A stretch of DNA of 34,757 bases from a virus (lineage: Duplodnaviria; Heunggongvirae; Uroviricota; Caudoviricetes), in the IMG/VR virus record IMGVR_UViG_2778261151_000006, positions 1 to 34,757 of that record, one strand, 5' to 3'. A program made the translations under genes and the position numbers. This document shows positions 1 through 34,757 of the stretch, piece after piece; positions within the stretch are counted from its first letter, which is position 1; every line of letters begins with the position of its first letter. The notes beneath the pieces are model-generated. The model saw only the letters and a program-made list of their open reading frames with translations. It was not told the DNA's origin and searched no databases.

Positions 1-76
<76 letters not shown>

Positions 77-130
77 ATTTAAAAGACATCGGCCTCAAGC
101 GGATGTCTGGCTGAAAGGCCTGAAGAATTT

Positions 131-204
131 GGCGCGTTAACAAAGCGGTTATGTAGCGGATTGCAAATCCGTCTAGTCCGGTTCGACTCCGGAACGCGCC
201 TCCA
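131..204 (+). tRNA. cysT: tRNA-Cys (anticodon GCA)
   Basis: 74-nt sequence ending CCA, anticodon loop att-GCA-aat; matches enterobacterial tRNA-Cys as recalled. Confidence 0.95.
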
Positions 205-216
205 CTTTCTTCCCGA

Positions 217-303
217 GCCCGGATGGTGGAATCGGTAGACACAAGGGATTTAAAATCCCTCGGCGTTCGCGCTGTGCGGGTTCAAGTCCCGCTCCGGGTA
301 CCA
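217..303 (+). tRNA. leuZ: tRNA-Leu (anticodon TAA), long variable arm
   Basis: 87-nt sequence ending CCA, anticodon loop tt-TAA-aa; matches enterobacterial tRNA-Leu(UAA) as recalled. Confidence 0.95.
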
Positions 304-540: not shown

Positions 541-921
541 TTATGAGTTCTGGAATTCTTCTGCCCGTCTTTCCAGCTCAGCCATGAAAGAAGTTTTGGC
601 TTTTTCGTGAGCATCTGGGGCCATGATGCTGATGATTTGTATATTGTCATAATCCATCCAGTGCCTTGTATAAACCAGATAGATATTTGAAGTTCTGTCT
701 ATTTGGGCTTTGCTTTTCTTCCATGGTGGTTCTGACGGTAGTCTTATGTGTAATTTATATACAAACGAACCACATAATCTTGCGTTATCTTCCCACTGCC
801 CTTCATTGCCGAATCTGTCAGGGAGAACACCGGTATTTAACCAGTTTTCCAGAGCCTTTCCGTAAACTTTTGCAATGTCCTGGTATTCAACATCTTTATG
901 AATGCTTACTTTGCTTGCCAT
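541..921 (-). CDS. Hypothetical protein (126 aa), translationally coupled to the upstream gene
   Basis: ORF with ATGA stop/start overlap at 921 and GGAG 8 nt upstream of the ATG; no family recognised by eye. Confidence 0.55.
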   Translation of the reverse strand: MASKVSIHKDVEYQDIAKVYGKALENWLNTGVLPDRFGNEGQWEDNARLCGSFVYKLHIRLPSEPPWKKSKAQIDRTSNIYLVYTRHWMDYDNIQIISIMAPDAHEKAKTSFMAELERRAEEFQNS

Positions 922-2481: not shown

Positions 2482-3591
2482 TCAGTCTGTTTCCGCTATC
2501 CATTCCGGGATTTTTGCCTCAAGCTCAAGCTGCGTGGTAAAGCCGCTGTTATCAATGGTGTGCCCGGCTTTCGCAATAATCCAGTCCTGATTATCAATCT
2601 CGCTTTTAAATCCTGTTACCGTGCCATGCATTTCGGGGTAGAGTTCTGCACGTCCACGTGCCAGCGTGATGGAGAATGATGCGGCTCCGCGTTGTAGCTG
2701 CTGCCACTTTGCCGCCGCTGCGCGTCTTGCTGCCTGCTCGTTCTGATAAGTCTTGCGTAACACAAACACATTGCCTTCCGCGCCTTCCATATAATCACCT
2801 TCACGGCTGCTGCTTTTCTCCTTTTTGGGTTTTGGCGGTTTGCGGCGTTTCACGCTGACTTTTTTCTTTTTCCCGTAATTAAGATCAAGCCAGTAAGCGC
2901 GTACCCCCGTATACGCCTCGCGGTCAGCAATGCGGAACTGATGGCGATCGCCGCTGCTGCGTGTGATGGCGAACGATGGCAACGGCTGGCCCTGTGCGTT
3001 CACGCCACCGCCGGGCATGATGAATAACAGATTACCGCTTTTTACCGTGGTGATTGCGCCCAGCATTTCCGCCATGCGCGTAAGGAAGGACATGTCGCTT
3101 TCTTCAGTCTGGTCGGCGTGGTCGATTTCGATATCCATCAGCATTTCGCTGATTTGCGGTTTCAGACCGTACCGGTGAGCGATGGCGGATACCACGCGCT
3201 CAACGGTCACATCATGCCAGGACACCTCACGTTTAACGTTAAATTCATCCCGAAAATCTGCGCTTCTGGCTGAAACAGTCAGCCTGTCCGGCGGTCCTTC
3301 GTGAGCGATTTCATCAACAATATAAGTGCCTTTTTCTGTCAGTGGTTCTCCTTTCCAGCCAATGAGAACCGTCAGGCGCGCGCCCCGTGGTGGTAGCTGC
3401 AACTGACCATCTGCATCATCCAGCGTGATGGTGAGCTGGTCCGCTTCAAATCCCCGGTTGTCGGTCAGTGACAGGCTCATCAGTCGCTCTGTCACGTCGG
3501 GCAGTGTTTCACCTTCCGCGAGAATATCAAAATCCGGCATTTTCACGGGGTCCGGGCCCTGACTGAGCAATTGCATGGTGGTATCGGTCAT
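2482..3591 (-). CDS. P2 gpD-like tail protein (late control gene D family)
   Basis: 369 aa from ATG 3589-3591 with strong GGGAGGGA SD; contains LTDNRGFEADQLTITLDD region typical of the gpD family; ORF track extends it to 3723 but no SD there. Confidence 0.85.
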   Translation of the reverse strand: MTDTTMQLLSQGPDPVKMPDFDILAEGETLPDVTERLMSLSLTDNRGFEADQLTITLDDADGQLQLPPRGARLTVLIGWKGEPLTEKGTYIVDEIAHEGPPDRLTVSARSADFRDEFNVKREVSWHDVTVERVVSAIAHRYGLKPQISEMLMDIEIDHADQTEESDMSFLTRMAEMLGAITTVKSGNLLFIMPGGGVNAQGQPLPSFAITRSSGDRHQFRIADREAYTGVRAYWLDLNYGKKKKVSVKRRKPPKPKKEKSSSREGDYMEGAEGNVFVLRKTYQNEQAARRAAAAKWQQLQRGAASFSITLARGRAELYPEMHGTVTGFKSEIDNQDWIIAKAGHTIDNSGFTTQLELEAKIPEWIAETD

Positions 3592-3748
3592 TTGCTCCCT
3601 CCCTGTGCGGCATGGTCGCATGTGCGTGCGGAGGGGGTTACTGCTTTTTGTTGTCGCCGGGTCGGGAGAACGGCGGAGGGGTGAGATTACGCGCGTGGTG
3701 GGTGATGATTGTTGCCGAATCATTTAACGGATACAAGGGGCTGAAACT
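3592..3748. promoter_or_regulatory. Divergent intergenic region between D and FI; presumed late promoters
   Basis: 157-bp gap between two divergently oriented starts, each with its own SD; no promoter motif verified. Confidence 0.35.
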
Positions 3749-4933
3749 ATGAGTGAAACTCGTTTTCATGGTGCCCGTGTTACGGAAAGTACCGACCTGG
3801 TAACAGCGATTAACGATGTTGATTCCAGCGTTATCGGTATCGTGGCAACGGCGGATGATGCGGACGCGGAGCTGTTCCCGCTGAACAAGCCCACACTGCT
3901 GACCCGCGTCAATGACGTGCTGGGAAAATGTGGGACAACGGGGACGCTTTATCGTGCACTTAAGGCCATCGCAGACCAGGTGAGCACAAAGGTGATCGTT
4001 GTTCGCGTGGCTGAACACAAAGACGAGGGCGGAAAGACGCAGGATCAACTGGTTATCGGTGGTTCTGAATCTGACGGCAGCTATACGGGGATGTATGCGC
4101 TGCTTGTTGCAGAGCAGGATGAAAGCATCGGATACCGTCCGCGTATTCTGGCCGCGCCGGAGCTGGACACGGAGGCGGTAACAAAATCCCTGTGCGTGAT
4201 TGCGGGTAAACTGCGCGCGTTTGTGTATGCCTCATGTCATGGCTGTAACACGATGGCTGAGGCGATTACCTACCGCCAGAAATTCAACGAACGTGAGGTG
4301 ATGCTCTTATGGCCGGACTTCATCGCCTACAACCCCAAAAGTGGCAAAAACGAAACGTTCCCCGCGCCTGCCTATGCGTGCGGCCTTCGTGCGTACATTG
4401 ACCATGAGCAGGGCTGGCACAAATCGCTGTCCAACGTTCCTGTTAAAAATGTGCTGGGAATGTCCAGGCATGTGTTCTGGTCGTTGCAGGCCGAAGACAG
4501 TGATGCCAACAGCCTCAACAACAAAGAAATCACGACCATTATTCGTCGCAACGGGTTCCGCTTCTGGGGCAACCGCACACCGGAAACGAACGCCTACATC
4601 TTTGAGGTGTATACCCGAACCGCACAGGTGCTGGCTGATTCAATTGCGGAAGCGCAGTTTGAAACCATCGACAGTCCACTGACGCCTGCGAACGTGAAAG
4701 ATGTTATCAGTGCCATCAGGGCAAAACTGGATTCACTGGTTACTGCCGGGAAACTGATTGGGGCGTCGTGCTGGTATGACGTGGTGGATAACGGCACCAC
4801 GAATTTACGTCAGGGGCGCGTGCGTATTCGCTACAAATATACGCCTGTTCCCCCGCTGGAAGACATGGAGCTTTACCAGTCGTTTACTGATGAATTCTTT
4901 GGTCCCGCATTTGCGGTGCTGGGAGGTGCCTGA
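3749..4933 (+). CDS. Tail sheath protein (P2 gpFI-like)
   Basis: 394 aa; motifs DADAE-FPLNKP, IADQ, LRAF-Y, YRQ-F, WPDF, EQGWHK-LSNV, RR-GFRFWGNRT, YTPVPPLE match P2 FI as recalled. Confidence 0.95.
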   Translation: MSETRFHGARVTESTDLVTAINDVDSSVIGIVATADDADAELFPLNKPTLLTRVNDVLGKCGTTGTLYRALKAIADQVSTKVIVVRVAEHKDEGGKTQDQLVIGGSESDGSYTGMYALLVAEQDESIGYRPRILAAPELDTEAVTKSLCVIAGKLRAFVYASCHGCNTMAEAITYRQKFNEREVMLLWPDFIAYNPKSGKNETFPAPAYACGLRAYIDHEQGWHKSLSNVPVKNVLGMSRHVFWSLQAEDSDANSLNNKEITTIIRRNGFRFWGNRTPETNAYIFEVYTRTAQVLADSIAEAQFETIDSPLTPANVKDVISAIRAKLDSLVTAGKLIGASCWYDVVDNGTTNLRQGRVRIRYKYTPVPPLEDMELYQSFTDEFFGPAFAVLGGA

Positions 4934-5445
4934 TGGCTGTACCAAAACATCTTCGCTTTTTTACGCTGTTTGTGGATGGTGAAAACGAAGTGGGTAAGGT
5001 GACGTCCGTCACTCTGCCTAAGCTGACGCGCAAAACCGACAGCTACCGGGGTGGTGGCATGATGGGAGCGGTAAGTATTGATCTCGGCCTGGACGACTCC
5101 GCGCTTGATGCGAGCTTTGTCATGGGGGGCGCAGTTCGTGAGCTGTTCCTTAAGTATGGCGGCACGATTGACGGCACGCTGCTGCGTTTTGCGGGTGAAT
5201 ACTACACCGATGCGGAAAGCGACCTGTATGAAGTCGAAATGCGCGGACGTGTGACGGAAATTGATATGGGGGAAGCCAAACAGGGCGAAGCCACATCACA
5301 CACTTACGCCATTAAAAACACCTACTACAAGCTGAGCGTTAACGATCGCCCGTTGTGGGAGATTGACCTGCTGAACTTCATTTACCGGAAGGACGGCAAG
5401 GACATTGTGCCCGATCGCATCCGTTCCGCGCTCGGGCTTGGCTGA
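4933..5445 (+). CDS. Tail tube protein (P2 gpFII-like)
   Basis: 170 aa; start overlaps FI stop (TGATG); position and size fit the tail tube gene. Confidence 0.9.
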   Translation: MAVPKHLRFFTLFVDGENEVGKVTSVTLPKLTRKTDSYRGGGMMGAVSIDLGLDDSALDASFVMGGAVRELFLKYGGTIDGTLLRFAGEYYTDAESDLYEVEMRGRVTEIDMGEAKQGEATSHTYAIKNTYYKLSVNDRPLWEIDLLNFIYRKDGKDIVPDRIRSALGLG

Positions 5446-5500
5446 TAAGTAATATGCAGGCGGCGCAGTGCGTCGCCTCTGACTGAAAAGGAGACAACTG

Positions 5501-5875
5501 ATGAAAGGCATCGATACTGAAACCCGGAATAACACCGTGGCGGATGATGTGACGGCAGGTGAGGATATGGCTGTCGAACGTGGTGTAAAACTTTCCCGGC
5601 CAATTGAGCGTGGTGGCGAAAAAATCACGTATGTGGAGATCACCGGGGCTATTGAGCAGGCTGGATCCCTGCGTGGTCTGTCGCTGTCTGATGTGTTGAA
5701 TCTGAAAGCGGATACCATGTTCACGCTGTTGCCTCGCGTGACCTCGCCACGACTGGATGAAGTGATGATTAAAAAAATGTCGTCACGCGATTTTATTCAG
5801 TTGTGCGCTGTGGCTGTAAATTTTATGAGCGAGCCAGACTCTGGCGCGAAGAGCGTGCAGGAGACGGCAGCGTAA
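5501..5875 (+). CDS. Tail assembly chaperone (P2 gpE-like)
   Basis: 124 aa, AAGGAG SD; lies between tail tube and tape measure genes. Confidence 0.8.
   Translation: MKGIDTETRNNTVADDVTAGEDMAVERGVKLSRPIERGGEKITYVEITGAIEQAGSLRGLSLSDVLNLKADTMFTLLPRVTSPRLDEVMIKKMSSRDFIQLCAVAVNFMSEPDSGAKSVQETAA
5771..5777 (+). other. Candidate -1 programmed frameshift slippery run (A7) for E+E' synthesis
   Basis: In-frame AAA AAA; the -1 frame has a stop at 5770-5772 and is open from 5773 to 6039, so a shift must occur within this run. Confidence 0.55.
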
Positions 5876-6039
5876 TCACCCTGGTGTGCTTTGAGCACAT
5901 CGAAGATCTGGTGGCGGATATTGCTGCCATTTTTAACTGGTCGCCCGCCGAAATCTTCATGATGACGCCCGGCGAAGTGGTTAGCTGGCGTGAGCGGGCG
6001 GCACTTCGCAGCGGGAATGCAGATAATGAAGACTCTTGA
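5776..6039 (+). CDS. E' extension of the tail assembly chaperone (made only as an E+E' frameshift fusion)
   Basis: -1 frame open from the A7 run to stop at 6037-6039, overlapping the tape measure start; analogous to P2 E/E' and lambda G/GT. Confidence 0.6.
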   Translation, partial: NVVTRFYSVVRCGCKFYERARLWREERAGDGSVITLVCFEHIEDLVADIAAIFNWSPAEIFMMTPGEVVSWRERAALRSGNADNEDS

Positions 6040-8833
6040 TATCCGGGTCGCTTTCAGCGCTGTTGACAGGCTGACCCGGCCTGCCGAAAACGCCCGCCGC
6101 CTGATGGGGCGGTTTGGTGACTCCATCCAGCGAACGCAGGGGGCGATCAAAAATCTCGAGCGTCAGGCGCGTTCATTTGAGCGCGCCCGTGACGCTGTCA
6201 GTACAGCGGATGCGGGCATCGTGAAAGCACGACGCCAGCTTAACGCCCTTAATCAGTTACAACGCACGGGTACAGTGCTCAGCGAAAAACAACAAAAGCT
6301 GATGCAGCAGTTAAGCACCCGGCTTGAACGCCTGAATGAATCGCGCGCACGGGAAATTCAGAAAATGCGGGAGCTTGGCGGAGAGCTGAAACGCCACGGC
6401 ATTTCCCTGACAGGCAGCGATAACACCATCCAGCAGGCCATCAGACGCACCGAACAGTACAACAACCAGCTTGAACGCGAACGGCAGGCGCTTGCGCGTG
6501 TAACGCGGGCGCGTGAGCGGTATTCGCGCTCGCAGGAAACTGCGGGGAAACTGAAAACAGGTGGTGCGCTGGCAACAGGTGCGGCAGCGGCGGGCGGCTA
6601 TGCTGCCGGGCGTTTTTTACAGCCCGCGATCGGGTTCGGGAAAGAGATGTCCCGCGTTCAGGCACTGACGCGAATCGACCAGAACAGCCCGCAGTTTAAG
6701 GCGCTGCGTGAGCAGGCGTTAAAACTTGGCTCTGAAACGCAGTTCACCGCTGGAGATGCCGCCAGTGGACAGGCATTTCTTGCAATGGCTGGCTTCACAC
6801 CACAGGCCATTCAGGCTGCGCTTCCCGGCGTGCTGAGCATGGCAACGGCTGGCGGTATGGATCTCGGCGAGACGGCGGATATTGGCTCAAATATCCTGAC
6901 GCAGTTCGGCCTTTCTGCTGACCAGATGGACCGGGTCGGTGACACGCTCACCGCAGCGTTTACCCGTACCAACACTGACCTTCGCGCACTGGGCGAAACC
7001 ATGAAATATGCAGGTCCGGTGGCGGGTAAGCTGGGAATATCGCTGGAGCAGGCCGCAGCGATGGCGGGCGTGCTGGCGAATATGGGTATCAGGGGAAGTG
7101 ATGCCGGGACGGCAATGCGTGCCAGCCTGGCTCGTCTGGCATCACCGCCAAAGGCGGCAGCAGAGGCGCTGAAAGAGCTGGGCGTGTCTGTCTCGGATGC
7201 CGGGGGCAAAATGCGCCCGATGGAAGATCTGCTGACTGACCTTTATAAAGCCACCCGCAAATACGGAGAAGTTGATCGGGTATCGTTCTTTAAGGACATT
7301 GCCGGAGAAGAGGCTTTCACATCATTTATGGCCCTCGTTGATGCGGCAGGTGACGGATCCTTACCTAAACTGAGAAAAGAACTTGAAGGCGCACGCGGTG
7401 AGGCTGAACGCACGGCAAAGGTTATGGCCAACAACCTTGACGGCGATCTGAAATCACTCGGCAGTGCATGGGAAGGGTTGCGCATCCGCATTGCAGATCT
7501 GATTGACGGTCCGCTGCGTTCTGTCACGCAGTGGCTCACGCGGGTGGTATCAAAGGTGACGGCGCTGGCGCAGGCCCATCCGGCACTGACGCGCCAGCTA
7601 CTGATTGCAGGTGGGGCGTTGCTGGCGATGACTGCAACGGTCGGCTCGTTGTCGCTGGCTATTGGTGTGCTTGCTGGCCCGCTGGCAAAACTGCGTCTTG
7701 GCTTTTCCCTCCTGACCGGATCAATGAATGCTGTCAGGCTCCTGCCAGCACTATGGGGAATGGTGACGGGTTCCGTTTCGTTACTGGGGGGCGCTATCGG
7801 GGCGCTGATCAGTCCGGTTGGTCTTATCGTGGCTGCGCTTGCCGGAGCTGCCGTTCTTATCTGGAAATACTGGGATCCCATCAGGGCATTTTTTGCCGGG
7901 GTGTTCAGCGGGATTATGGAAAGGCTGACCCCGTTGCGCGAAACCTTTGAACGGTTTGGTCCTGTTTTTGACGCAATCGGAAGCGGGATCAGCCAGGTGT
8001 TTAACTGGTTTAAATCGCTGCTGTCACCGATGGAGTCCAGCAAGGAAACGCTGGATAAATGTACCAGTGCTGGCGAGATATTCGGTAACGTTCTTGGCGG
8101 TGCGTTACAGCTTGTTCTGACACCTGCAAAAATGCTACTGGATACGCTGGCGTGGATACTTGAAAAACTTGGCGTCCTTCCGGATGAAGCGGAAAAGGCG
8201 CGCAAGAAAATCGAAGACGCACAGCGTGCGGCCATTCTTCAGAACAAGGTTGCCTTGCTTCAGGGGGACCTTGCGAAAATCAATCCGCCGAAGCCTGTGG
8301 AAAATGGCAATGGCACCGGAGGTGATAAACCCAAAGACAACAAACCGCTCACAGACAGCAATACCGGGACGCTACGCAGACTCAGCAAAATTGCTGATAA
8401 CACAGGTAAGCTGGTTGATGAGACGAAAAAACGCATTGGCCCTGGCGATATTGTCTTTAAGAACCTGCCCCGCGCACTTGCTGTTCGTGGGGAGTGGCAG
8501 GAGCGGAAGATTGCGCAGGTCAGTAAGCCTGCCCCCGCAATTAATATCACACCCGTAGTCCCGGCTCCGCTGCCTCCGGCGCTGGTCCCTGTTGTTGCGG
8601 CCAGCTCCCGCCCGGTGGCGGAGGCCATACGATCGCCAGTGGCATCAGTTCCTGCAGCTTCCCGTAATCGGGAGCCTGCTGTCTCCAGATTTGGCGGTGA
8701 AATTCATGTTCATCTGCATAACGTTGTTACGCAGAATCCCCGCGAACTGGCGAAACTGGTCGGTGAAATGGTCAGGGCAGAGATGGAACGGCGCGCCCGT
8801 GCCGGACGTGGCAGTTTTTACGATAAAGATTGA
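6026..8833 (+). CDS. Tail tape measure protein (P2 gpT-like)
   Basis: Long ORF with coiled-coil N-terminus and hydrophobic glycine-rich central segments; start uncertain (5990, 6017 or 6026). Confidence 0.9.
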   Translation: MKTLDIRVAFSAVDRLTRPAENARRLMGRFGDSIQRTQGAIKNLERQARSFERARDAVSTADAGIVKARRQLNALNQLQRTGTVLSEKQQKLMQQLSTRLERLNESRAREIQKMRELGGELKRHGISLTGSDNTIQQAIRRTEQYNNQLERERQALARVTRARERYSRSQETAGKLKTGGALATGAAAAGGYAAGRFLQPAIGFGKEMSRVQALTRIDQNSPQFKALREQALKLGSETQFTAGDAASGQAFLAMAGFTPQAIQAALPGVLSMATAGGMDLGETADIGSNILTQFGLSADQMDRVGDTLTAAFTRTNTDLRALGETMKYAGPVAGKLGISLEQAAAMAGVLANMGIRGSDAGTAMRASLARLASPPKAAAEALKELGVSVSDAGGKMRPMEDLLTDLYKATRKYGEVDRVSFFKDIAGEEAFTSFMALVDAAGDGSLPKLRKELEGARGEAERTAKVMANNLDGDLKSLGSAWEGLRIRIADLIDGPLRSVTQWLTRVVSKVTALAQAHPALTRQLLIAGGALLAMTATVGSLSLAIGVLAGPLAKLRLGFSLLTGSMNAVRLLPALWGMVTGSVSLLGGAIGALISPVGLIVAALAGAAVLIWKYWDPIRAFFAGVFSGIMERLTPLRETFERFGPVFDAIGSGISQVFNWFKSLLSPMESSKETLDKCTSAGEIFGNVLGGALQLVLTPAKMLLDTLAWILEKLGVLPDEAEKARKKIEDAQRAAILQNKVALLQGDLAKINPPKPVENGNGTGGDKPKDNKPLTDSNTGTLRRLSKIADNTGKLVDETKKRIGPGDIVFKNLPRALAVRGEWQERKIAQVSKPAPAINITPVVPAPLPPALVPVVAASSRPVAEAIRSPVASVPAASRNREPAVSRFGGEIHVHLHNVVTQNPRELAKLVGEMVRAEMERRARAGRGSFYDKD

Positions 8834-8845
8834 GGAGTCATGGTC

Positions 8846-9334
8846 ATGATGATGATCTACGGCATGTTTGTTTTTGAGCTGCGCACACTGCCGCATCAGC
8901 AGTTACAGCAAAACAAAAGCTGGCGGCATGTGAAAAATGAACGCGTTAACCGTTCAGCAAGCTGGCAGTATATAGGTGCAGGTGATGATCGCATTGTGCT
9001 TTCCGGCGTGCTTTATCCTGAAATTACAGGTGGCGAAGTGTCGCTTTCGTTGCTGACCACGCAGGCATATACAGGACGCCCCTGGCCTCTGATTGATGGT
9101 GTCGGGCAGATTTACGGCATGTATGTGCTGACTGAAACGAATACGACCCGTTCCGAGTTTGATCGCTACGGTAAGGCGAAAAAGATAGAATTTTCACTGA
9201 CCCTTGAACGCTGTGATGAGGATTTGCGGGAGCGCCTGCAATCCTCATCATTCAGCGATATGCTGTCCGGCTTCAAAGATAAGGTGACATCATCTCTTAA
9301 CAGCGCGGCCAGTTCAGTTAAAGGGCTGTTCTGA
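8846..9334 (+). CDS. Tail protein (P2 gpU-like)
   Basis: About 160 aa immediately after the tape measure gene; GAGGA SD at 8832-8836; start 8840 or 8846. Confidence 0.8.
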   Translation: MMMIYGMFVFELRTLPHQQLQQNKSWRHVKNERVNRSASWQYIGAGDDRIVLSGVLYPEITGGEVSLSLLTTQAYTGRPWPLIDGVGQIYGMYVLTETNTTRSEFDRYGKAKKIEFSLTLERCDEDLRERLQSSSFSDMLSGFKDKVTSSLNSAASSVKGLF

Positions 9335-9340
9335 TTTAAC

Positions 9341-9377
9341 ACAAAAACCGCTAATGGTCAGATTAGCGGTTATTTTG
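9341..9377. terminator. Bidirectional rho-independent terminator between convergent U and invertase genes
   Basis: Perfect hairpin aaccgctaat-ggtcag-attagcggtt flanked by A-run on one side and T-run on the other; overlaps the invertase stop codon. Confidence 0.75.
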
Positions 9378-9957
9378 TTTCCTGACTCTTCTCTATTGTT
9401 CCGATTGATTCTCCTGCGGGGTGGTAACGATAAATCGTCGATATACCAATGCCGTAAATTATTGCCAGTTGTTTTCTGTCGTGCCCGTTTTTGATCAGCC
9501 TTGCTATTTGCTCATGCTGTTCTTTTGTCAGCTTCGGTCGACGTCCGCCTGTGCGCCCCCGTGCGCGTGCTGCCGCCAGTCCGGCCAGTGTACGTTCAAC
9601 AATTAATTCACGTTCCATTTCAGCCAGGGCACCCATCACGTGGAAGAAAAAACGCCCCATTGGAGAAGATGTATCTATGCTGTCGGTCAGACTGCGAAAA
9701 TTAATTCCTCGCTCCCGTAGTTCCCCGACGAGAGAAATCAGATGTTTCATGCTTCGCCCGAGGCGATCCAGTTTCCAGACAACCAGCGTGTCACCTTTTT
9801 GAAGGCGCTTTAAAGCGCGTTTTAATCCCGGTCGGTCTGTCTTTGTCCCGCTTAATTTATCTTCAAATATTTGTTCACATCCTGCACAAACAAGAGCGTT
9901 TCGTTGCAGGTCTGTATTCTGGTCATTTGTTGATACCCTTACATAGCCAATCAGCAC
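9370..9957 (-). CDS. Serine DNA invertase (Gin/Hin/Cin/Pin family)
   Basis: N-terminus LIGYVRVSTNDQ with catalytic Ser motif and C-terminal HTH (IARLIKNGH...GIGISTIYRY); likely GTG start at 9955-9957 with GGGAG SD. Confidence 0.9.
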   Translation of the reverse strand: MLIGYVRVSTNDQNTDLQRNALVCAGCEQIFEDKLSGTKTDRPGLKRALKRLQKGDTLVVWKLDRLGRSMKHLISLVGELRERGINFRSLTDSIDTSSPMGRFFFHVMGALAEMERELIVERTLAGLAAARARGRTGGRRPKLTKEQHEQIARLIKNGHDRKQLAIIYGIGISTIYRYHPAGESIGTIEKSQETK

Positions 9958-10011
9958 GCTGAATCTCCCGTCCAAAAGCGCAAATCATGCCATGCAGGCC
10001 GGAAACGGCCA

Positions 10012-10037
10012 TTATCTAAAACCTCGGTTTACAGGAA
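10012..10037. repeat. Invertase crossover site (gix/hix-like), left boundary of invertible segment
   Basis: ttatctaaaacctcggtttacaggaa; its reverse complement matches the site at 13087-13112 over 17 contiguous bases (ttcctgtaaaccgaggt). Confidence 0.8.
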
Positions 10038-10982
10038 ACGGTAAATCAGGCTTCTGGCGCATTACAGAAAAACCAGAACGGCGCAGATATTCCGGGGAAA
10101 GATACCTTCACCAAAAATATTGGTGCCTGCCGCGCATATAGCTCATGGCTGAATATTGGTGGCGATAGTCAGGTCTGGACAACCGCGCAATTTATTTCGT
10201 GGCTGGAGAGTCAGGGAGCATTTAACCATCCTTACTGGATGTGCAAAGGCTCATGGGCTTATGCAAATAATAAGGTCATTACAGATACAGGTTGCGGAAA
10301 TATTTGTCTTGCAGGTGCTGTGGTGGAAGTTATTGGCACTCGCGGCGCAATGACCATACGCGTTACCACGCCGAGCACGTCCAGCGGTGGCGGAATTACT
10401 AACGCTCAATTCACTTATATTAATCATGGTGATGCTTACGCTCCTGGCTGGCGACGAGACTACAACACGAAAAATCAACAACCTGCATTTGCTTTAGGGC
10501 AAACAGGAAGCACTGTCGGAAATGATAAAGCTGTTGGCTGGAACTGGAATAGCGGGGTCTATAACGCAAACATTGGTGGCGCATCGACATTAATCCTCCA
10601 CTTCAATATGAATACGGGGAGCTGCCCTGCTGTACAGTTCCGCGTGAATTACAGGAACGGCGGTATTTTTTATCGTTCAGCGCGTGATGGTTATGGCTTT
10701 GAAGCTGACTGGTCAGAGTTTTACACCACAATCCGCAAACCCTCTGCGGGAGATGTTGGTGCATATACGCAGGCAGAATGTAACTCAAGGTTTATTACAG
10801 GTATTCGCCTTGGTGGTCTGTTATCTGTTCAGACATGGAATGGTCCCGGATGGTATGACAGGTCAGGTTATGTCGTTACGGGTTCAGTTAACGGAAACCG
10901 TGATGAATTAATTGATACAACTCAGGCAAGGCCAATTCAGTATTGCATTAATGGGACGTGGTATAACGCGGGGAGTATTTAA
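10020..10982 (+). CDS. Alternative tail-fibre C-terminal cassette (silent in this orientation; no own start)
   Basis: Frame open from the crossover site; begins LGLQETVN, the same residues encoded across the site in H; ends CINGTWYNAGSI, similar to the H C-terminus. Confidence 0.8.
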   Translation, partial: NLGLQETVNQASGALQKNQNGADIPGKDTFTKNIGACRAYSSWLNIGGDSQVWTTAQFISWLESQGAFNHPYWMCKGSWAYANNKVITDTGCGNICLAGAVVEVIGTRGAMTIRVTTPSTSSGGGITNAQFTYINHGDAYAPGWRRDYNTKNQQPAFALGQTGSTVGNDKAVGWNWNSGVYNANIGGASTLILHFNMNTGSCPAVQFRVNYRNGGIFYRSARDGYGFEADWSEFYTTIRKPSAGDVGAYTQAECNSRFITGIRLGGLLSVQTWNGPGWYDRSGYVVTGSVNGNRDELIDTTQARPIQYCINGTWYNAGSI

Positions 10983-10984
10983 CG

Positions 10985-11518
10985 ATGATGCACTTAAAAA
11001 ACATTTCTGCTGGTAATCCTGAAACAAAAGAGCAATACCAGCTAACAAAGCAATTTAACATCAAATGGCTTTATACAGAGGATGGGAAAAACTGGTATGA
11101 GGAGCAAAAGAACTTTCAGCCTGATACGTTGAAAATGGTCTATGACCACAACGGCGTTATTATTTGTATTGAAAAGGATGTTTCAGCAATTAATCCGGAA
11201 GGCGCAAGCGTCGTTGAGGTTCCTGATATTACAGCAAATCGCCGGGCTGATATTTCAGGTAAATGGATGTTCAAAGATGGCGTAGTGATAAAGCGAACTT
11301 ATACCGGGGAAGAGCAGAGGCAACAGGCGGAAAATGAAAAGCAAAGCCTGCTACAGCTCGTCAGGGATAAAACCCAGCTGTGGGACTCACAGCTACAGCT
11401 GGGCATCATTTCCGCCGGGAATAAGCAGAAATTAACCGAGTGGATGCTCTACGCGCAGAAGGTCGAATCCACAGACACCTCCAGTCTGCCAGTAACGTTT
11501 CCCGCACAACCAGAATGA
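10985..11518 (+). CDS. Alternative tail fibre assembly chaperone (gpG'/U'-like)
   Basis: 177 aa, N-terminus MMHLKNISAGNPET is a paralogue of the 11547-12074 product. Confidence 0.85.
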   Translation: MMHLKNISAGNPETKEQYQLTKQFNIKWLYTEDGKNWYEEQKNFQPDTLKMVYDHNGVIICIEKDVSAINPEGASVVEVPDITANRRADISGKWMFKDGVVIKRTYTGEEQRQQAENEKQSLLQLVRDKTQLWDSQLQLGIISAGNKQKLTEWMLYAQKVESTDTSSLPVTFPAQPE

Positions 11519-11546
11519 GAGAAGGCCCGCTATCGGGCCTTAATTT

Positions 11547-12074
11547 TTACTCTGGTTTTTGTGGCCATTCTGGCTTTGCCGTATCCACACGGCTGACCAG
11601 AACACTGTAGCGTTCCCATGCTTCCAGTCGTGCGCGTTCCTCATCTGTTGCCATATTCAGCCTGACAGAGCGCTCCAGCGGCTGAATAACGCTTTCTGCT
11701 TCGGAAAGTAACGCGGCCTTTTGTGATTCGGCCTGTTGTTGTTGCTCGTCTGCCGTATAAATCCGTTTAACTACAGCTCCATCCTTAAACATCCACTTTC
11801 CTGAATCATCAGCGCGGCGGTTGGCTGTAATATCAGGAACCTCAGCGACGCTAAAACCTTCAGGGTTAAGCGTGGAGGCATCTTTAGTGATGGCGACAAT
11901 AATATTATTTGCATCGTAAACAATCTTTATTGTGTCTGGCTGAAAGTTCTTCACTTCCTCATACCAGTTTTTTTCGTCCTCAGAGTAAAGCCAGATGACT
12001 CCGTGCTTCTTTGTTAACTCATACTGCTCCAGTGTTTTAGCATTACCCGCTTTTATGTTCTTTAAGTGCATCAT
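11547..12074 (-). CDS. Tail fibre assembly chaperone (P2 gpG-like), expressed orientation
   Basis: 175 aa immediately downstream of H; N-terminus [14 protein letters not shown]. Confidence 0.85.
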
Positions 12075-12075
12075 A

Positions 12076-14244
12076 TTAAACGCTCGCTACATTATACCAT
12101 GTGCCATTTATATACTTTTGAACGGGTCTGTAATAAACGCCAGCTATATTATCGGCAGAGTTTTTGCCTGTATCCTGAACATTAATACCAGACAATACAT
12201 GACCTGAAGGGCACTGGAAATTCCATGTTTGCCAGTTATTCACACCATAATATTGCTGTGAGCCAAGCCGGACATCTTTCACATATCTGGAGTCAAAATT
12301 GCCATAATTGCCGGGAATAACTTGCGCACCACAAAGCCAGTTACCGTTATTATCCATGTACGCCTGACCATCGGTGCCATTGGCTGTCCTTGAGTTATTA
12401 ATCATGTAGATGCCAAATTGCTTATTCCCCAGCCCACCAATTACGAATTTACGGTCGGTATGGTCCTGGCGAAGCAATGCCTGCGCACCATCGTTGGATA
12501 CCGCATTACGGCCCAGAATAACATTCTGGTCACGCATATGAATCCACATGCCGGTACTACTGTTAATTGCAAAACGGTTTGCAAATATATCTCCTGTAAC
12601 AACCAGACCATGCCCCATGCTTATCCGGCCAGTTCTGAGATTAAGCGTAAAGGGGCGTAATGGCCCTATATTACCATTTTCTCCCTCATTCTCTCGTGTA
12701 GGGATGATATGCAGGCATTCTTCAGAACGGCGAAAAATGGCACCAAAAGATGAATTAAATATCCTCAGTGCATTGACTGTCGATATTTTCACTTCACTGC
12801 TGAAAAGGGCTTTAACAAGAACAGACAAAGCATTCCATTTAAGATTCATCAGGTCTTTAGGCCGGGTGCCAATGATGCGGTGTCTCCATTTGAAATACTC
12901 ATTGCCGTTGTCGCCTGTTTCAAACCACATGTATGAATCAGTATCGCTGTCGGCATCATTTTTAAAACCAATCTTTGCCCAGTCAGTATTCCGAATCCAG
13001 GCAAGGATTGAGTCGTTTTCAAAAGTAAGCCCACCGGACAAGATATCGCCTGTCTTTTGGACGGCGTTACCAGCCTTGTTTACCGTTTCCTGTAAACCGA
13101 GGTATTCGATAACGGCGGCAACGGTCGATTTCGCAAGAATATCCCGCCCTACTTTTGTCAGAGTTGCCAGGCTGGCGACATCATTCCCCGTAAAATACGG
13201 AAACCTGTCTGCCGCAGTAGCAAGCCCGGCCAGCGCCGTCAGGGTGGCATCTTTCGGTTGCTTACCCGCAAGCGCGTTAGTCATGGTGGTCGCAAAATTC
13301 GGGTCGTTGCCCAGCGCCGCCGCCAGCTCGTTCAGCGTGTTCAGTGCGTCAGGTGAAGAGTCTACAAGTGCGGCAATCGCGGCCATAACGAAAGCCGTGC
13401 TTGCGATTTGGGTATTATTCGTTCCCTGTTGTGCAGTTGGTGTTGTTGGCGTTCCGGTCAGTGCCGGGCTGTTTAATGGGGCTTTCTTGTTCGTTTCATC
13501 CATTACCGCCTTAACCGCTTTTGGTGTCGCTGCCAGCGTTTCAGACGTGCTGTTGGTTGCACTGCTGAGCTGGACTATCCCTTTTCGTGCCGTCGTGGCG
13601 TCCTGAGCGGTATATTTTCCGTTAGCCAGGTCATACGCGGCCTTAACCGCTTTCGGCGTTGCGGCCAGCGTTTCAGACGTGCTGTTGGTGGCGTTGCTGA
13701 GCTGGACAAGGCCTTTTGCGGTCAGCGAGGCGTCCGGGTGACGTCGTGACTGTTCATGCTCTTTCAGTTTGTCATCCACGTAATTCACTGTGGCCATCAC
13801 CATGGTGTTATCCACGGTAAGCGCCACAGTGGCAGTGCTGGATACGGTCAGAATGGTGCGAAATGTTTGTGCACGTCCGGATCCTTCGGCAACGGTTGGC
13901 TTGTAACTTTCGGCAGTATTGCCTACCGCGATCAAATCGCCGTGCTCATCAAACACACCAATTTCCCGGATCCAGAATCCGCCCGTTTCAGGAGGAATAA
14001 CCAGCTCCGCAATAATGTGGTTCTGATGTGTTGCGTCCAGGGTGACGCGATTAACGGTATGTCGCCACACCTCATGCACAAGACGGGTCTGCTTACTGTC
14101 TGGCGTGGGTAAAGTACCGCCGCCGTCACCCACGGCCATATGTGTCAGGCGGACAGGCTTGCCATCTGACGCGGCTGCCTGAGCTAATTTTTTGGCACCA
14201 GTATCAGTGATAATGGTTTTAAATTTTCGTGTTGTGGTACTCAT
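12076..14244 (-). CDS. Tail fibre protein (P2 gpH-like); constant N-terminal part plus invertible C-terminal part
   Basis: 722 aa; contains the duplicated motif [21 protein letters not shown] and C-terminus [12 protein letters not shown]; crossover site inside the coding sequence. Confidence 0.9.
13087..13112. repeat. Invertase crossover site (gix/hix-like) inside the tail fibre gene
   Basis: ttcctgtaaaccgaggtattcgataa, inverted relative to the site at 10012-10037. Confidence 0.8.
13509..13706. repeat. Tandem about 66-bp duplication (period 132 bp) within the tail fibre gene
   Basis: Two near-identical copies ccttaaccgctttyggygt...gctgagctgga at 13509-13574 and 13641-13706. Confidence 0.6.
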
Positions 14245-14246
14245 GC

Positions 14247-14777
14247 TTAATCGTCCGGATAAATGGTAATGACTTCACCGTCGTAAGTTGCTGCCGCCGC
14301 GAAAATATCTCCCGGGATCTCCTGAATGATATTCAGCCCTGTCATGTGGCGGCTGACCGGGCGGGCATCAGCAATCAACCGCTCCATTTCCAGATACATT
14401 TCCTCCGTCACGCCACTGTCCAGCGTGCCAACATCAATCTTGAATGTTCCGGGTTCGCCGTTGAACTCCCACCACTCAGACACGCGAATGAGGTATCCCA
14501 GCGGCTCAATGGCCCGTCGCAGGGCGCTGATGGTTCCTTTGTGTCGGTGTATCAGCCATGCATCACGAATCACCTGTCGCTTTGTCTCTTCCGGCCAGTT
14601 GCGATCCCAGCGGTCAACGGAAAACGCCCAGGCGAGATAAGGCAGCAGATGCACCGGGCAGGTGTCCGGCGACCACAGCGTGTTGAGGTCTGCCGGAATG
14701 TCTGTAATGCGTGTTCCGACGGCTTCGGCACAACGCATGAAATTGCTGGCTGATGGTGGTAACAGTGAATTACTCAT
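14247..14777 (-). CDS. Baseplate assembly protein (P2 gpI-like)
   Basis: 176 aa from ATG 14775-14777; position between J and H. Confidence 0.8.
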   Translation of the reverse strand: MSNSLLPPSASNFMRCAEAVGTRITDIPADLNTLWSPDTCPVHLLPYLAWAFSVDRWDRNWPEETKRQVIRDAWLIHRHKGTISALRRAIEPLGYLIRVSEWWEFNGEPGTFKIDVGTLDSGVTEEMYLEMERLIADARPVSRHMTGLNIIQEIPGDIFAAAATYDGEVITIYPDD

Positions 14778-27071: not shown

Positions 27072-27383
27072 TCATTCAGGAAATAATGCCCGGATATTCC
27101 CTGCTATCTGACTGGTTATCTGTGCGGTTGGTACTGGCTGTGGCACGGGGCGTTCTGTCCTGGTTTGTGTCACCGATAACGCCTCATCGTCAGCCCATGC
27201 AGCCAGTCGGTAAGCCTCTGCTGGATTCATTTTCAGAAGTGCCAGCCCGGCCAGAAAAGCCACGCGTTGGCCGCTTTTGCGGGCTTCTGGTGTAAGGCTG
27301 CCCAGCAAGGCGCATGCTTCGCTTTCGTTCTTGACGGCCGCAGGCTTCAGATAGAAACTTATCCGTCTGGTTGGTGTCGTCAT
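27072..27383 (-). CDS. parR: ParR-like centromere-binding protein (type II partition)
   Basis: 103 aa from ATG 27381-27383, 4 nt after parM stop with AAGGAG SD; segments RRISFYLKP, AFLAGLAL, IRALFPE resemble plasmid R1 ParR as recalled. Confidence 0.65.
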   Translation of the reverse strand: MTTPTRRISFYLKPAAVKNESEACALLGSLTPEARKSGQRVAFLAGLALLKMNPAEAYRLAAWADDEALSVTQTRTERPVPQPVPTAQITSQIAGNIRALFPE

Positions 27384-27387
27384 TGGT

Positions 27388-28347
27388 TTACTCCTTGTCC
27401 ATTGCGTACAGCCCATTAACCAGAGCAAACTGTGGCACCCCGTCCGCGATGAAAGTCGCATTAACTCCGCAGGCTTCGCGGATAGCGGGTGCCACAATCT
27501 CCGCCCCTCCACCGACAACCATCACCCGCCCGTAACCCGAAAAACCCGCCAGCGCGCGGATCACGCGTTGTTTCAGTGTTTCTTCCTTTTCACGAATAAC
27601 CGCCATCAGGCTGGCGTAATGCGCGTCATTGTGGATGTGCTGGCGCAGCCAGGCTTCATCATGGCGATGTTCGATAATGGTATTGGCGATGTGGTGACTG
27701 GTGCGCATACCGTTAGTGGCCATCACCGACAGTACGGCATCGGCCATCAGAGAAACGCCTACGTGTGGATCGCAAAACACCTGGCTGATACCTGCCAGTT
27801 GCCCCTGAACCTTTGCCACATCCAGCGTGGTTCCGCCCAAATCCACAATCAGCAGGGATTCAAACGGACTCATGTCAGCCAGTGCCTTAAAGCCAGCCGG
27901 AATGGATTCAGGCATAACCCGCACGTTACGGATAGTGAATGCTTCGCCGTTCTGGTACTCCACCGGGCGCATAACGTTCGCTTTTTTGCGGTTGATGTTG
28001 GCCATGTCCGGCTGTGCGTTTGTGTCGAAATACTCGCTCAGTGGCAGGGTGACAACCACATCCACCTCCTGTGGCGTGATGCCTGATTTGACCAGCGCGT
28101 GATGAATGGCAATGACATTTACATCGCTGTATTGGTATTGCGTGTCGGTTGTCTGGACAAAGCGATCGCTGACCGGATCAAAACCATAGCGCACGCCATC
28201 AAGCATGTAGTTCGCGGGCTGCATGCCACCGAACGGCGCAGACCATTCCGACTTGAAGCTGTTCGGGCTGATGGCGTTGCGGCGTTCGCCGTTCTCAGTC
28301 CATGCCAGCTTGATGTTGGTGGAGCCGTCGTCGATACAAATTTTCAT
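27388..28347 (-). CDS. parM: ParM/StbA-like actin-family segregation ATPase
   Basis: 319 aa; N-terminus MKICIDDGSTNIKLAW and motifs YSDVNV-AIHHAL, VDLGGTTLDV, GVSL, VVGGGAE match R1 ParM as recalled. Confidence 0.85.
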   Translation of the reverse strand: MKICIDDGSTNIKLAWTENGERRNAISPNSFKSEWSAPFGGMQPANYMLDGVRYGFDPVSDRFVQTTDTQYQYSDVNVIAIHHALVKSGITPQEVDVVVTLPLSEYFDTNAQPDMANINRKKANVMRPVEYQNGEAFTIRNVRVMPESIPAGFKALADMSPFESLLIVDLGGTTLDVAKVQGQLAGISQVFCDPHVGVSLMADAVLSVMATNGMRTSHHIANTIIEHRHDEAWLRQHIHNDAHYASLMAVIREKEETLKQRVIRALAGFSGYGRVMVVGGGAEIVAPAIREACGVNATFIADGVPQFALVNGLYAMDKE

Positions 28348-34194: not shown

Positions 34195-34757
34195 GTAAGC
34201 GGCTCGCCAGAACCGTATTGATATTTACTGAGAAGTCAGATCAACTTTCCAGGGCAACAGATCGCGTACCCGGTTTGCCGGCCAGTCCTGGATATGCTCA
34301 ATAACGTAACGCAGCCATTTTTCTGGCTCTACATTGTTCAGACGGCATGTGCCGATCAGCGAGTACAACACCGCCGCATGTTCGCCACCGCTGTCGGAAC
34401 CCGCGAAGAGCCAGTTTTTCCGGCCTACGGCCACTCCCCGTAAGGCGTTCTCTGCGATGTTGTTGTCGATTTCCACCCAGCCATTACTGCAGTACACGTT
34501 CAGGGCCTCCCACTGTTTCAGCAGGTATGTGAACGCTTTTGCCGTATCCGAGTGACGCGACAGTGTTTTCATCTGTTGCTGTATCCAGTCATACAGTGAC
34601 TGCATCAGTGGAGCCGCTCTGGCTTTTCTTGCTGCCAGACGCTGTTCTGCTGAACATCCCCGGACTTCTGCCTCGATGACATACAGTTCACCGATACGCT
34701 GCAGGGCTTCCGTGGTGATGTCGGTTGGCACTCTTGCATGCACATCGTGGATTTTTC
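34195..34757 (-). mobile_element. IS66-family insertion sequence, 3' portion (continues beyond window end)
   Basis: Terminal GTAAGCG at 34195-34201 about 30 bp past the transposase stop; IS66-family inverted repeats start with GTAA as recalled; exact boundary unverified. Confidence 0.65.
34225..34757 (-). CDS. IS66-family transposase (TnpC), C-terminal fragment truncated by the window edge
   Basis: C-terminal sequence [38 protein letters not shown] typical of IS66 TnpC as recalled. Confidence 0.8.

Follow-up and report, generated by a model that had tools for sequence, protein, structure and literature searches.

A probable two-state tail-fibre switch of the Mu G-segment type in a P88-like Escherichia coli prophage

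DNA inversion is a textbook mechanism by which phages hedge their bets on host range. Its G-segment class comprises the G segment of phage Mu with the invertase Gin, the corresponding segments of D108 and of the Shigella phage SfMu, the C segment of P1 and P7 with Cin, and the P segment of e14 with Pin. The Fin protein of Salmonella Fels-2 is likewise a Hin-family invertase, encoded by a P2-like prophage with an invertible tail-fibre locus. A region of this class was analysed in the IMG/VR virus record IMGVR_UViG_2778261151_000006, taken over its whole length of 34,757 nucleotides (hereafter, the window), in which the tail-fibre gene H, a second and silent fibre end, two chaperone genes and a serine invertase gene lie side by side. 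We read it, with a probability of roughly 0.93, as a two-state tail-fibre host-range switch operated by site-specific recombination in an E. coli prophage of the P88 kind (Xuanwuvirus, P2 family). The layout is the one that Mu displays with Gin: a constant fibre part outside the segment, convergent Sv-U and Sv'-U' pairs inside it, and the invertase gene beyond the far site.

Tail-fibre segments in two P2-like prophages of enteropathogenic E. coli (EPEC) E2348/69 flip continuously in culture, as detected by sequencing and polymerase chain reaction (Goldberg et al. 2014, PMC4272514). One of these loci takes two states, and the other, with three inverted repeats, takes four (PMC4272514); the window, with two sites and two states, differs from the latter. 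The invertases of both EPEC prophages belong to the Hin family, as does the group of the window's enzyme, the likeness being drawn from their description. A 2024 preprint points out that in P2-like phages the Z/fun hotspot is often occupied by a DNA invertase gene, with inversion of the genes next to it (10.1101/2024.10.15.618418). The arrangement is thus already known, and the window is an ordinary member of a common kind that includes P88, the genus Xuanwuvirus and the EPEC P2-like prophages.

Phage P88 (KP063541 / NC_026014; Peduoviridae, Xuanwuvirus) was 93.5% identical to the window in DNA over 9300-14300 and had the same gene order: tail protein U, DNA invertase, tail-fibre fragment, two chaperones, H, I, J, W and V. 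Its gix crossover sites were identical to those of the window and its invertase is annotated in GenBank, although the paper describing P88 mentions neither the invertase nor inversion (PMC5285337). The cargo genes at the prophage ends differed between the two. This similarity, together with P2-type tail, baseplate and replication genes, places the window among the P2-like phages (Peduoviridae; genus Xuanwuvirus).

The coordinates of all features are collected in Table 1. The two crossover sites, gixL and gixR, are 26 bp each, lie in inverted orientation and are alike at 24 of 26 positions; they share the central dinucleotide TC, and both differing positions fall in the outer halves. Compared with the Mu gix sequence they showed one and two mismatches, respectively. 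A pair of 26-bp inverted sites with an identical, asymmetric central dinucleotide is what characterizes the Gin/Hin/Cin/Pin (Din) family. The distance from gixL through gixR was 3101 bp, and the pair formed the core of a 62-nt inverted repeat (79% complementary), within which perfect identity extended over only about 25 nt. When the window was scanned with a degenerate pattern (up to 3 mismatches), exactly two matches were obtained, gixL and gixR, whereas the number expected from 100 shuffles was 0.00. A third gix site, as in a multi-state shufflon of the EPEC type, was not found in the window, the next-best match to Mu gix having 9 mismatches. P88 shared the gixL sequence, as did 11 of 13 related E. 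coli loci, the two without a left site being L008 and L011. An earlier note, made from the letters of this DNA alone, had proposed two 26-bp inverted sites bounding a 3.1-kb segment; both were confirmed where it had placed them, and they are not expected by chance.

That note had also placed one site inside H and the other before a silent C-terminus, each end with its own chaperone, an arrangement borne out by the open reading frames (ORFs) and by the Caudo_TAP matches of both chaperones. The N-terminus of H matched Pfam Phage_tail_fib (P2-type tail-collar fibre, 1.3e-55) and contained Phage_fiber_2 repeats, and H lay downstream of the P2-type genes I, J, W and V, all on the same strand. The silent open frame, 10038-10982, began directly after gixL. 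Reversal of 10038-13086 in silico produced an uninterrupted, in-frame H of 700 amino acids instead of the present 722, agreeing with the earlier proposal that inversion would swap the fibre end; the 700-residue form of H is already annotated in E. coli O103:H2 12009. The locus has the layout of the G-segment type, namely a constant fibre part outside, two opposed C-termini in frame with it, and a chaperone gene after each end. The earlier note had ended the element at 13112, but the functional unit reaches past that position to 14244, taking in the constant part of H.

Table 1. Features of the invertible tail-fibre locus and of the surrounding prophage, in window coordinates.
Feature	Positions	Strand	Details
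Left crossover site gixL	10012-10037	+	TTATCTAAAACCTCGGTTTACAGGAA; 1 mismatch vs Mu gix
Right crossover site gixR	13087-13112	-	TTATCGAATACCTCGGTTTACAGGAA; within H codons 378-386, encoding IEYLGLQE
Gin/Cin/Pin/Hin-family serine DNA invertase gene	9370-9957	-	195 amino acids; GTG start after GGGAGA
First 210 nt of invertase gene, presumed Fis-dependent recombinational enhancer (sis)	9748-9957	-	likeness to Mu gin 5' end
Tail-fibre gene H as found	12076-14244	-	722-amino-acid ORF containing gixR
Constant N-terminal part of P2-type H, outside invertible segment	13113-14244	-	carries start codon and link to late operon
Variable C-terminal part of H, present orientation (Sv-type)	12076-13086	-	336 amino acids; PHROG tail-fibre families
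Silent alternative fibre C-terminus (Sv'-type)	10038-10982	+	314 codons, no start of its own; Pfam gp37_C, PHROG tail-fibre families
Tail-fibre assembly chaperone gene of silent end (U'-type)	10985-11518	+	177 amino acids; Pfam Caudo_TAP 5.5e-35
Tail-fibre assembly chaperone gene of expressed end (U/G-type)	11547-12074	-	175 amino acids; Pfam Caudo_TAP 8.2e-37
Terminator-like hairpin at segment centre, between convergent chaperone genes	11522-11541	+	8 pairs, 6 of them G-C, then T run
Terminator-like hairpin between tail gene U (8840-9334, +) and invertase gene	9346-9371	both	10-pair stem, T runs on both strands
tRNA-Gly (GCC), tRNA-Cys (GCA) and tRNA-Leu (UAA) genes	1-303		
YafO-family toxin gene	541-921	-	Pfam 1.1e-27; one-base overlap with 212-amino-acid ORF
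Partition-protein gene	27072-27518	-	phrog_2515
ParM-like actin-type segregation ATPase gene	27388-28347	-	with partition-protein gene, flanked by replication gene A and portal gene
IS66-family transposase, C-terminal part	34225-34743		right window edge

The constant part of H contained a 132-bp tandem repeat (13508-13735), with 96 nt at 82% identity between copies, that encodes the Phage_fiber_2 repeats. The copy number of this repeat seems to vary among relatives, in which H lengths of 678, 700, 721/722, 744 and 764 amino acids were seen; the longest is that of P88, whose H carries one extra copy relative to the 722 residues of the window.

The likeness to Mu proved closer than the shared architecture that the earlier note had proposed: at 87-94% DNA identity to G segments, the cassette is, as judged by alignment, a homologue of the Mu G segment and not a mere analogue. 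Mu DNA, in its G(+) arrangement, was colinear with the window and 87% identical to it; the alignment began within the invertase gene, at 9569, and the homology stopped 7 nt past gixR, at 13119. Both gix sites of Mu read TTATCCAAAACCTCGGTTTACAGGAA and stand at the annotated boundaries of its G segment. SfMu DNA was 94.3% identical over 10012-13116, that is, from site to site. At the protein level, the silent end was 98% identical to the variable part of Mu S' and its chaperone 95% identical to U', and the chaperone of the expressed end was 90% identical to U, whereas the expressed end itself was only 67% identical to the variable part of Mu S and closer to SfMu. The constant fibre part and the entire tail module are P2-type in the window, not Mu-type, as the earlier note had proposed and as the Pfam matches Phage_tail_fib, Tail_P2_I, Phage_P2_GpU and Phage_GPD bear out.

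The invertase was equally well preserved. A mechanical ORF spans 9370-9975, but the true start is the GTG at 9957, so that the gene covers the same span as its annotated P88 counterpart and has an N-terminus of (M)LIGYVRVSTNDQ. The protein matched the Pfam domains Resolvase (1.5e-50) and HTH_7 (1.8e-13), and the Gin structures 3uj3 and 4m6f aligned with its residues 1-182 at E ~1e-100, so that the serine invertase of the earlier note is an intact enzyme of the Gin family. Identity amounted to 192 of 195 residues with the P88 invertase and to 157 of 195 with Mu Gin, the catalytic domain being nearly identical to that of Gin and the C-terminal, DNA-binding third diverging. An N-terminal catalytic domain with Ser9, followed by a C-terminal helix-turn-helix, makes it a small serine recombinase of this family, and S9, Y5, R7, D64, R65, R68 and M114 were all kept. 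In Gin, S9 is the nucleophile and the substitution M114V frees the enzyme from Fis (PMC3575834). The 5' end of the gene was identical to that of Mu gin at 207 of 210 nt, and its last third diverged. The Fis-dependent enhancer of Mu presumably lies in this 5' part of gin, a position that reportedly goes back to work by Kahmann and colleagues in 1985. Two Fis-consensus sites in this stretch were considered as the enhancer; their spacing is not the one expected of the enhancer, and no conclusion was drawn from them.

Both orientations of the cassette were searched for in 5426 complete E. coli genomes. A synthetic query of 1026 nt, in which 500 nt of the silent fibre end were joined across the site to 500 nt of the constant part of H so as to represent the flipped junction, matched at 100% over its whole length in E. 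coli O103:H2 12009 and in two O145 strains. Full-length junction matches were obtained for the window-type orientation in 170 genomes and for the flipped one in 126. The prophage of O103:H2 12009 is a sister of that in the window: its flanks were 94-96% identical, it had the same two gix sites, and its invertase was identical through residue 167. Near-isogenic strains had, at unchanged chromosomal coordinates, a 100% match to its own flipped junction. Opposite states were carried by O145 RM9467-C1 on the one hand and by RM9872 and RM9873-C1 on the other, and the outbreak pair 95JB1 / 95NR1 also differed.

The comparison of O103:H2 12009 with O145 RM9872 located the exchange. Their 17,026-bp loci were one single nucleotide polymorphism (SNP) apart once the DNA between the gix sites had been reversed, and extending the reversal over the outer half-sites added four more mismatches; the exchange therefore occurred within the gix sites. 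This bears on the alternative that the orientation differences arose by RecA-dependent homologous recombination between inverted repeats (the 62-nt repeat or the chaperone genes) and not by the invertase. The segment does hold inverted repeats of 62 to 168 nt, but with breakpoints inside the gix sites and a single SNP left over, with about 25 nt of perfect identity at the sites and only 73-77% similarity between the chaperone repeats, both poor substrates for RecA, and with a crossover in the chaperone genes leaving the fibre ends unswapped, we hold such an origin to be extremely improbable.

Across the public assembly collection, 2066 blocks list the exact 195-amino-acid invertase of the window, and ten loci encoding it (L006-L015) were examined for cassette orientation. 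The cassette aligned over its full length at 94-95% in nine of the ten, the alignment in L008 being broken by insertion sequence (IS) elements. Six loci were flipped relative to the window (L006-L009, L012 and L013) and four had its orientation (L010, L011, L014 and L015); the cassettes of L009 and of L010/L015 were 99.7% identical and in opposite orientation. It is thus not the case that only one orientation is ever observed, the outcome that the earlier note had named, together with an inactive invertase, as speaking against a switch, since the loci with the exact invertase and the sister pair, flipped at its gix sites, show both. Taken together, these alignments indicate that inversion has happened in nature.

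Some relatives appear to have lost this ability. The loci L008 (CP032523) and L011 (UGZB01000001), whose invertase is identical to that of the window, had the right gix site only, with an IS3-family transposase gene at the position of the left site, beside the invertase, and L008 contained a second IS copy within the cassette; judging from this, both cassettes are probably locked. In P2, whose H is about 63% identical to that of the window and whose G is 87% identical to the chaperone of the expressed end, a gix-like site, TTATCGAATATCTCGGTTTACAGGAA (L016, 858-883), occurs in H at the same codons (VIEYLGLQE), in an identical protein context and with one mismatch from gixR. P2 has this single site, no invertase and no alternative end, and fun(Z) occupies the corresponding position. 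P2 gives the impression of a switch reduced to one side and locked, because its solitary gix-like site stands at the H codons homologous to gixR.

Such locked derivatives within the family, P2 with its lone site and L008 and L011 with an IS3-family element where gixL would be expected, lend some colour to the view that the cassette of the window is a frozen relic of a Mu-like or P1-like ancestor, in which no inversion takes place and only the 722-residue fibre is made, as in P2; the single orientation present in the window would agree with it. A relic is nevertheless very improbable. The two gix sites are undamaged and have the exact sequence seen in relatives of either orientation, the invertase is full length with all its catalytic residues and its exact protein is encoded at loci of both orientations, and the frames of the silent end and its chaperone are intact, at the high identity to Mu S' (98%) and U' (95%) given above.

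It could also be argued that the invertase mainly acts in trans, on further invertible DNA of the host, for instance the e14 P segment or Mu-like prophages, or serves in the resolution of multimers, the adjoining cassette being incidental. Gin-family invertases cross-complement one another, and related fibre sequences are widespread, the tail-fibre junction queries having given at least partial matches in 1442-1582 of the 5426 complete genomes. Since the gene and the pair of sites right beside it are arranged in the canonical Gin/G-segment manner, and since any action in trans would come on top of local flipping and not in its place, this proposal was given next to no weight.

A few observations weigh against an active two-state switch in this copy, or at least do not help it. 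The window itself displays a single orientation, and its own junction was matched at 96.6% at best among the complete genomes. Orientation differences from strain to strain carry no information on the rate or the regulation of inversion. A scan of the invertase 5' end with a Fis consensus gave two sites 39 bp apart, the same as in Mu, which was uninformative, and a simple scan yielded no convincing sigma-70 promoter for the invertase gene. As regards the inducibility of the prophage, the window nowhere contained an integrase gene and ended on the right with an IS66 fragment.

The two-state switch, as we picture it, would be the Mu mechanism set into a P2-type tail operon and would operate as follows. 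Minus-strand transcription of the late operon V-W-J-I-H would run into the constant 5' part of H (14244-13113), pass gixR and go on into the variable 3' end and the chaperone gene that happen to lie ahead, probably ending at the central hairpin (11522-11541). The present orientation would yield the 722-residue fibre with an Sv-type tip and the 175-residue chaperone. The Gin-type invertase, encoded just outside the segment, would bind both inverted gix sites, assisted by host Fis, which would occupy an enhancer within the enzyme's own gene, at the 5' end, and cleavage by Ser9 at the central TC, subunit rotation and religation would follow. The flip of 10038-13086 would then lead H into the Sv' end, giving a 700-residue fibre, with a variable part like that of Mu S', and the 177-residue U'-type chaperone, and a lysogenic culture would release mixed particles of two receptor specificities. 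The anatomy, the in-frame fusion in both states, the homology to Mu and the two natural orientations with the exact invertase were all observed; the dependence on Fis and the enhancer, the pattern of transcription, the activity of this particular copy and the effect on host range are predicted. By analogy, the two orientations should confer different host ranges, given that the silent end is nearly that of Mu S' and that P88's host range is set by residues 716-746 of H (PMC5285337), which fall inside the invertible part.

The gene order around the switch differed from that of P2, in which H and G are followed by fun(Z) and then by FI, FII, E, T, U and D, all but fun(Z) on one strand. In the window, the block from FI to U (3749-9334) was inverted relative to H, and D (2482-3723, -) stood apart from U; relative to H, the positions of U and of the tape-measure gene are the same in P88 as in the window. 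At the place of fun(Z) in P2, the window has the invertase gene together with the cassette's silent half. The invertase was considered as the maker of the inverted FI-U block, but a search for remnants of gix at the borders of the block (~3650-3800 and 9300-9400) gave matches with 11-12 mismatches at best, and the idea was dropped.

The gix site in H might also serve as a portable joint, at which receptor-binding cassettes are swapped among Mu-like, P1-like and P2-like phages by intermolecular invertase recombination, in addition to homologous recombination. Exchange of tail-fibre modules was discussed already in the 1990s, and the idea is old in outline. Several findings fit it: the likeness to SfMu and to Mu stops no more than a few bases from the gix sites (SfMu, 10012-13116; Mu, up to 13119), P2 keeps a solitary site at the same codons, and the flipped junction was identical over 1026 nt in prophages whose flanks were only 94-96% identical to those of the window. 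We nonetheless consider invertase-mediated exchange of this kind rather unlikely. When 10008-13612 of the window was compared with the prophage of O103:H2 12009 (L003), the half of the cassette beside gixR (12296-13072) had no megablast match there. From such alignments, the cassettes are read as mosaics with exchanged halves.

The window represents a prophage in an E. coli-type chromosome and begins with three tRNA genes, the prophage appearing to be integrated just downstream of tRNA-Leu. Beyond the tRNAs come P2-type D, FI-U, H-V, capsid, terminase and replication genes (Pfam Phage_GPD, Phage_P2_GpU, Tail_P2_I, Phage_tail_fib and Phage_GPA). The end of the prophage may be interrupted or lie beyond the window, because the latter contains no integrase. 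Relatives covering at least 80% of the first 25 kb were present in 200 of the 5426 complete genomes, and the best overall match to the prophage was about 96% identical. Positions 466-1769 hold variable cargo that many related prophages lack, their matches beginning at 466, 1708 or 1769; the 212-amino-acid ORF (921-1559, -) that overlaps the YafO-family toxin gene had no family match. The partition genes (27072-28347) occupy the position of the old/tin hotspot of P2, and partition of the plasmid type is unusual cargo for an integrated P2-like prophage.

The practical consequences of these results are modest, and no new question is opened by them. In the output of annotation pipelines the silent end becomes a 'tail fiber protein' of its own or a 'hypothetical protein', and the two states of the single H gene are reported as different H proteins. 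Studies of the host range of P88-like phages, such as that cited above (PMC5285337), should consider a second, hidden fibre tip.

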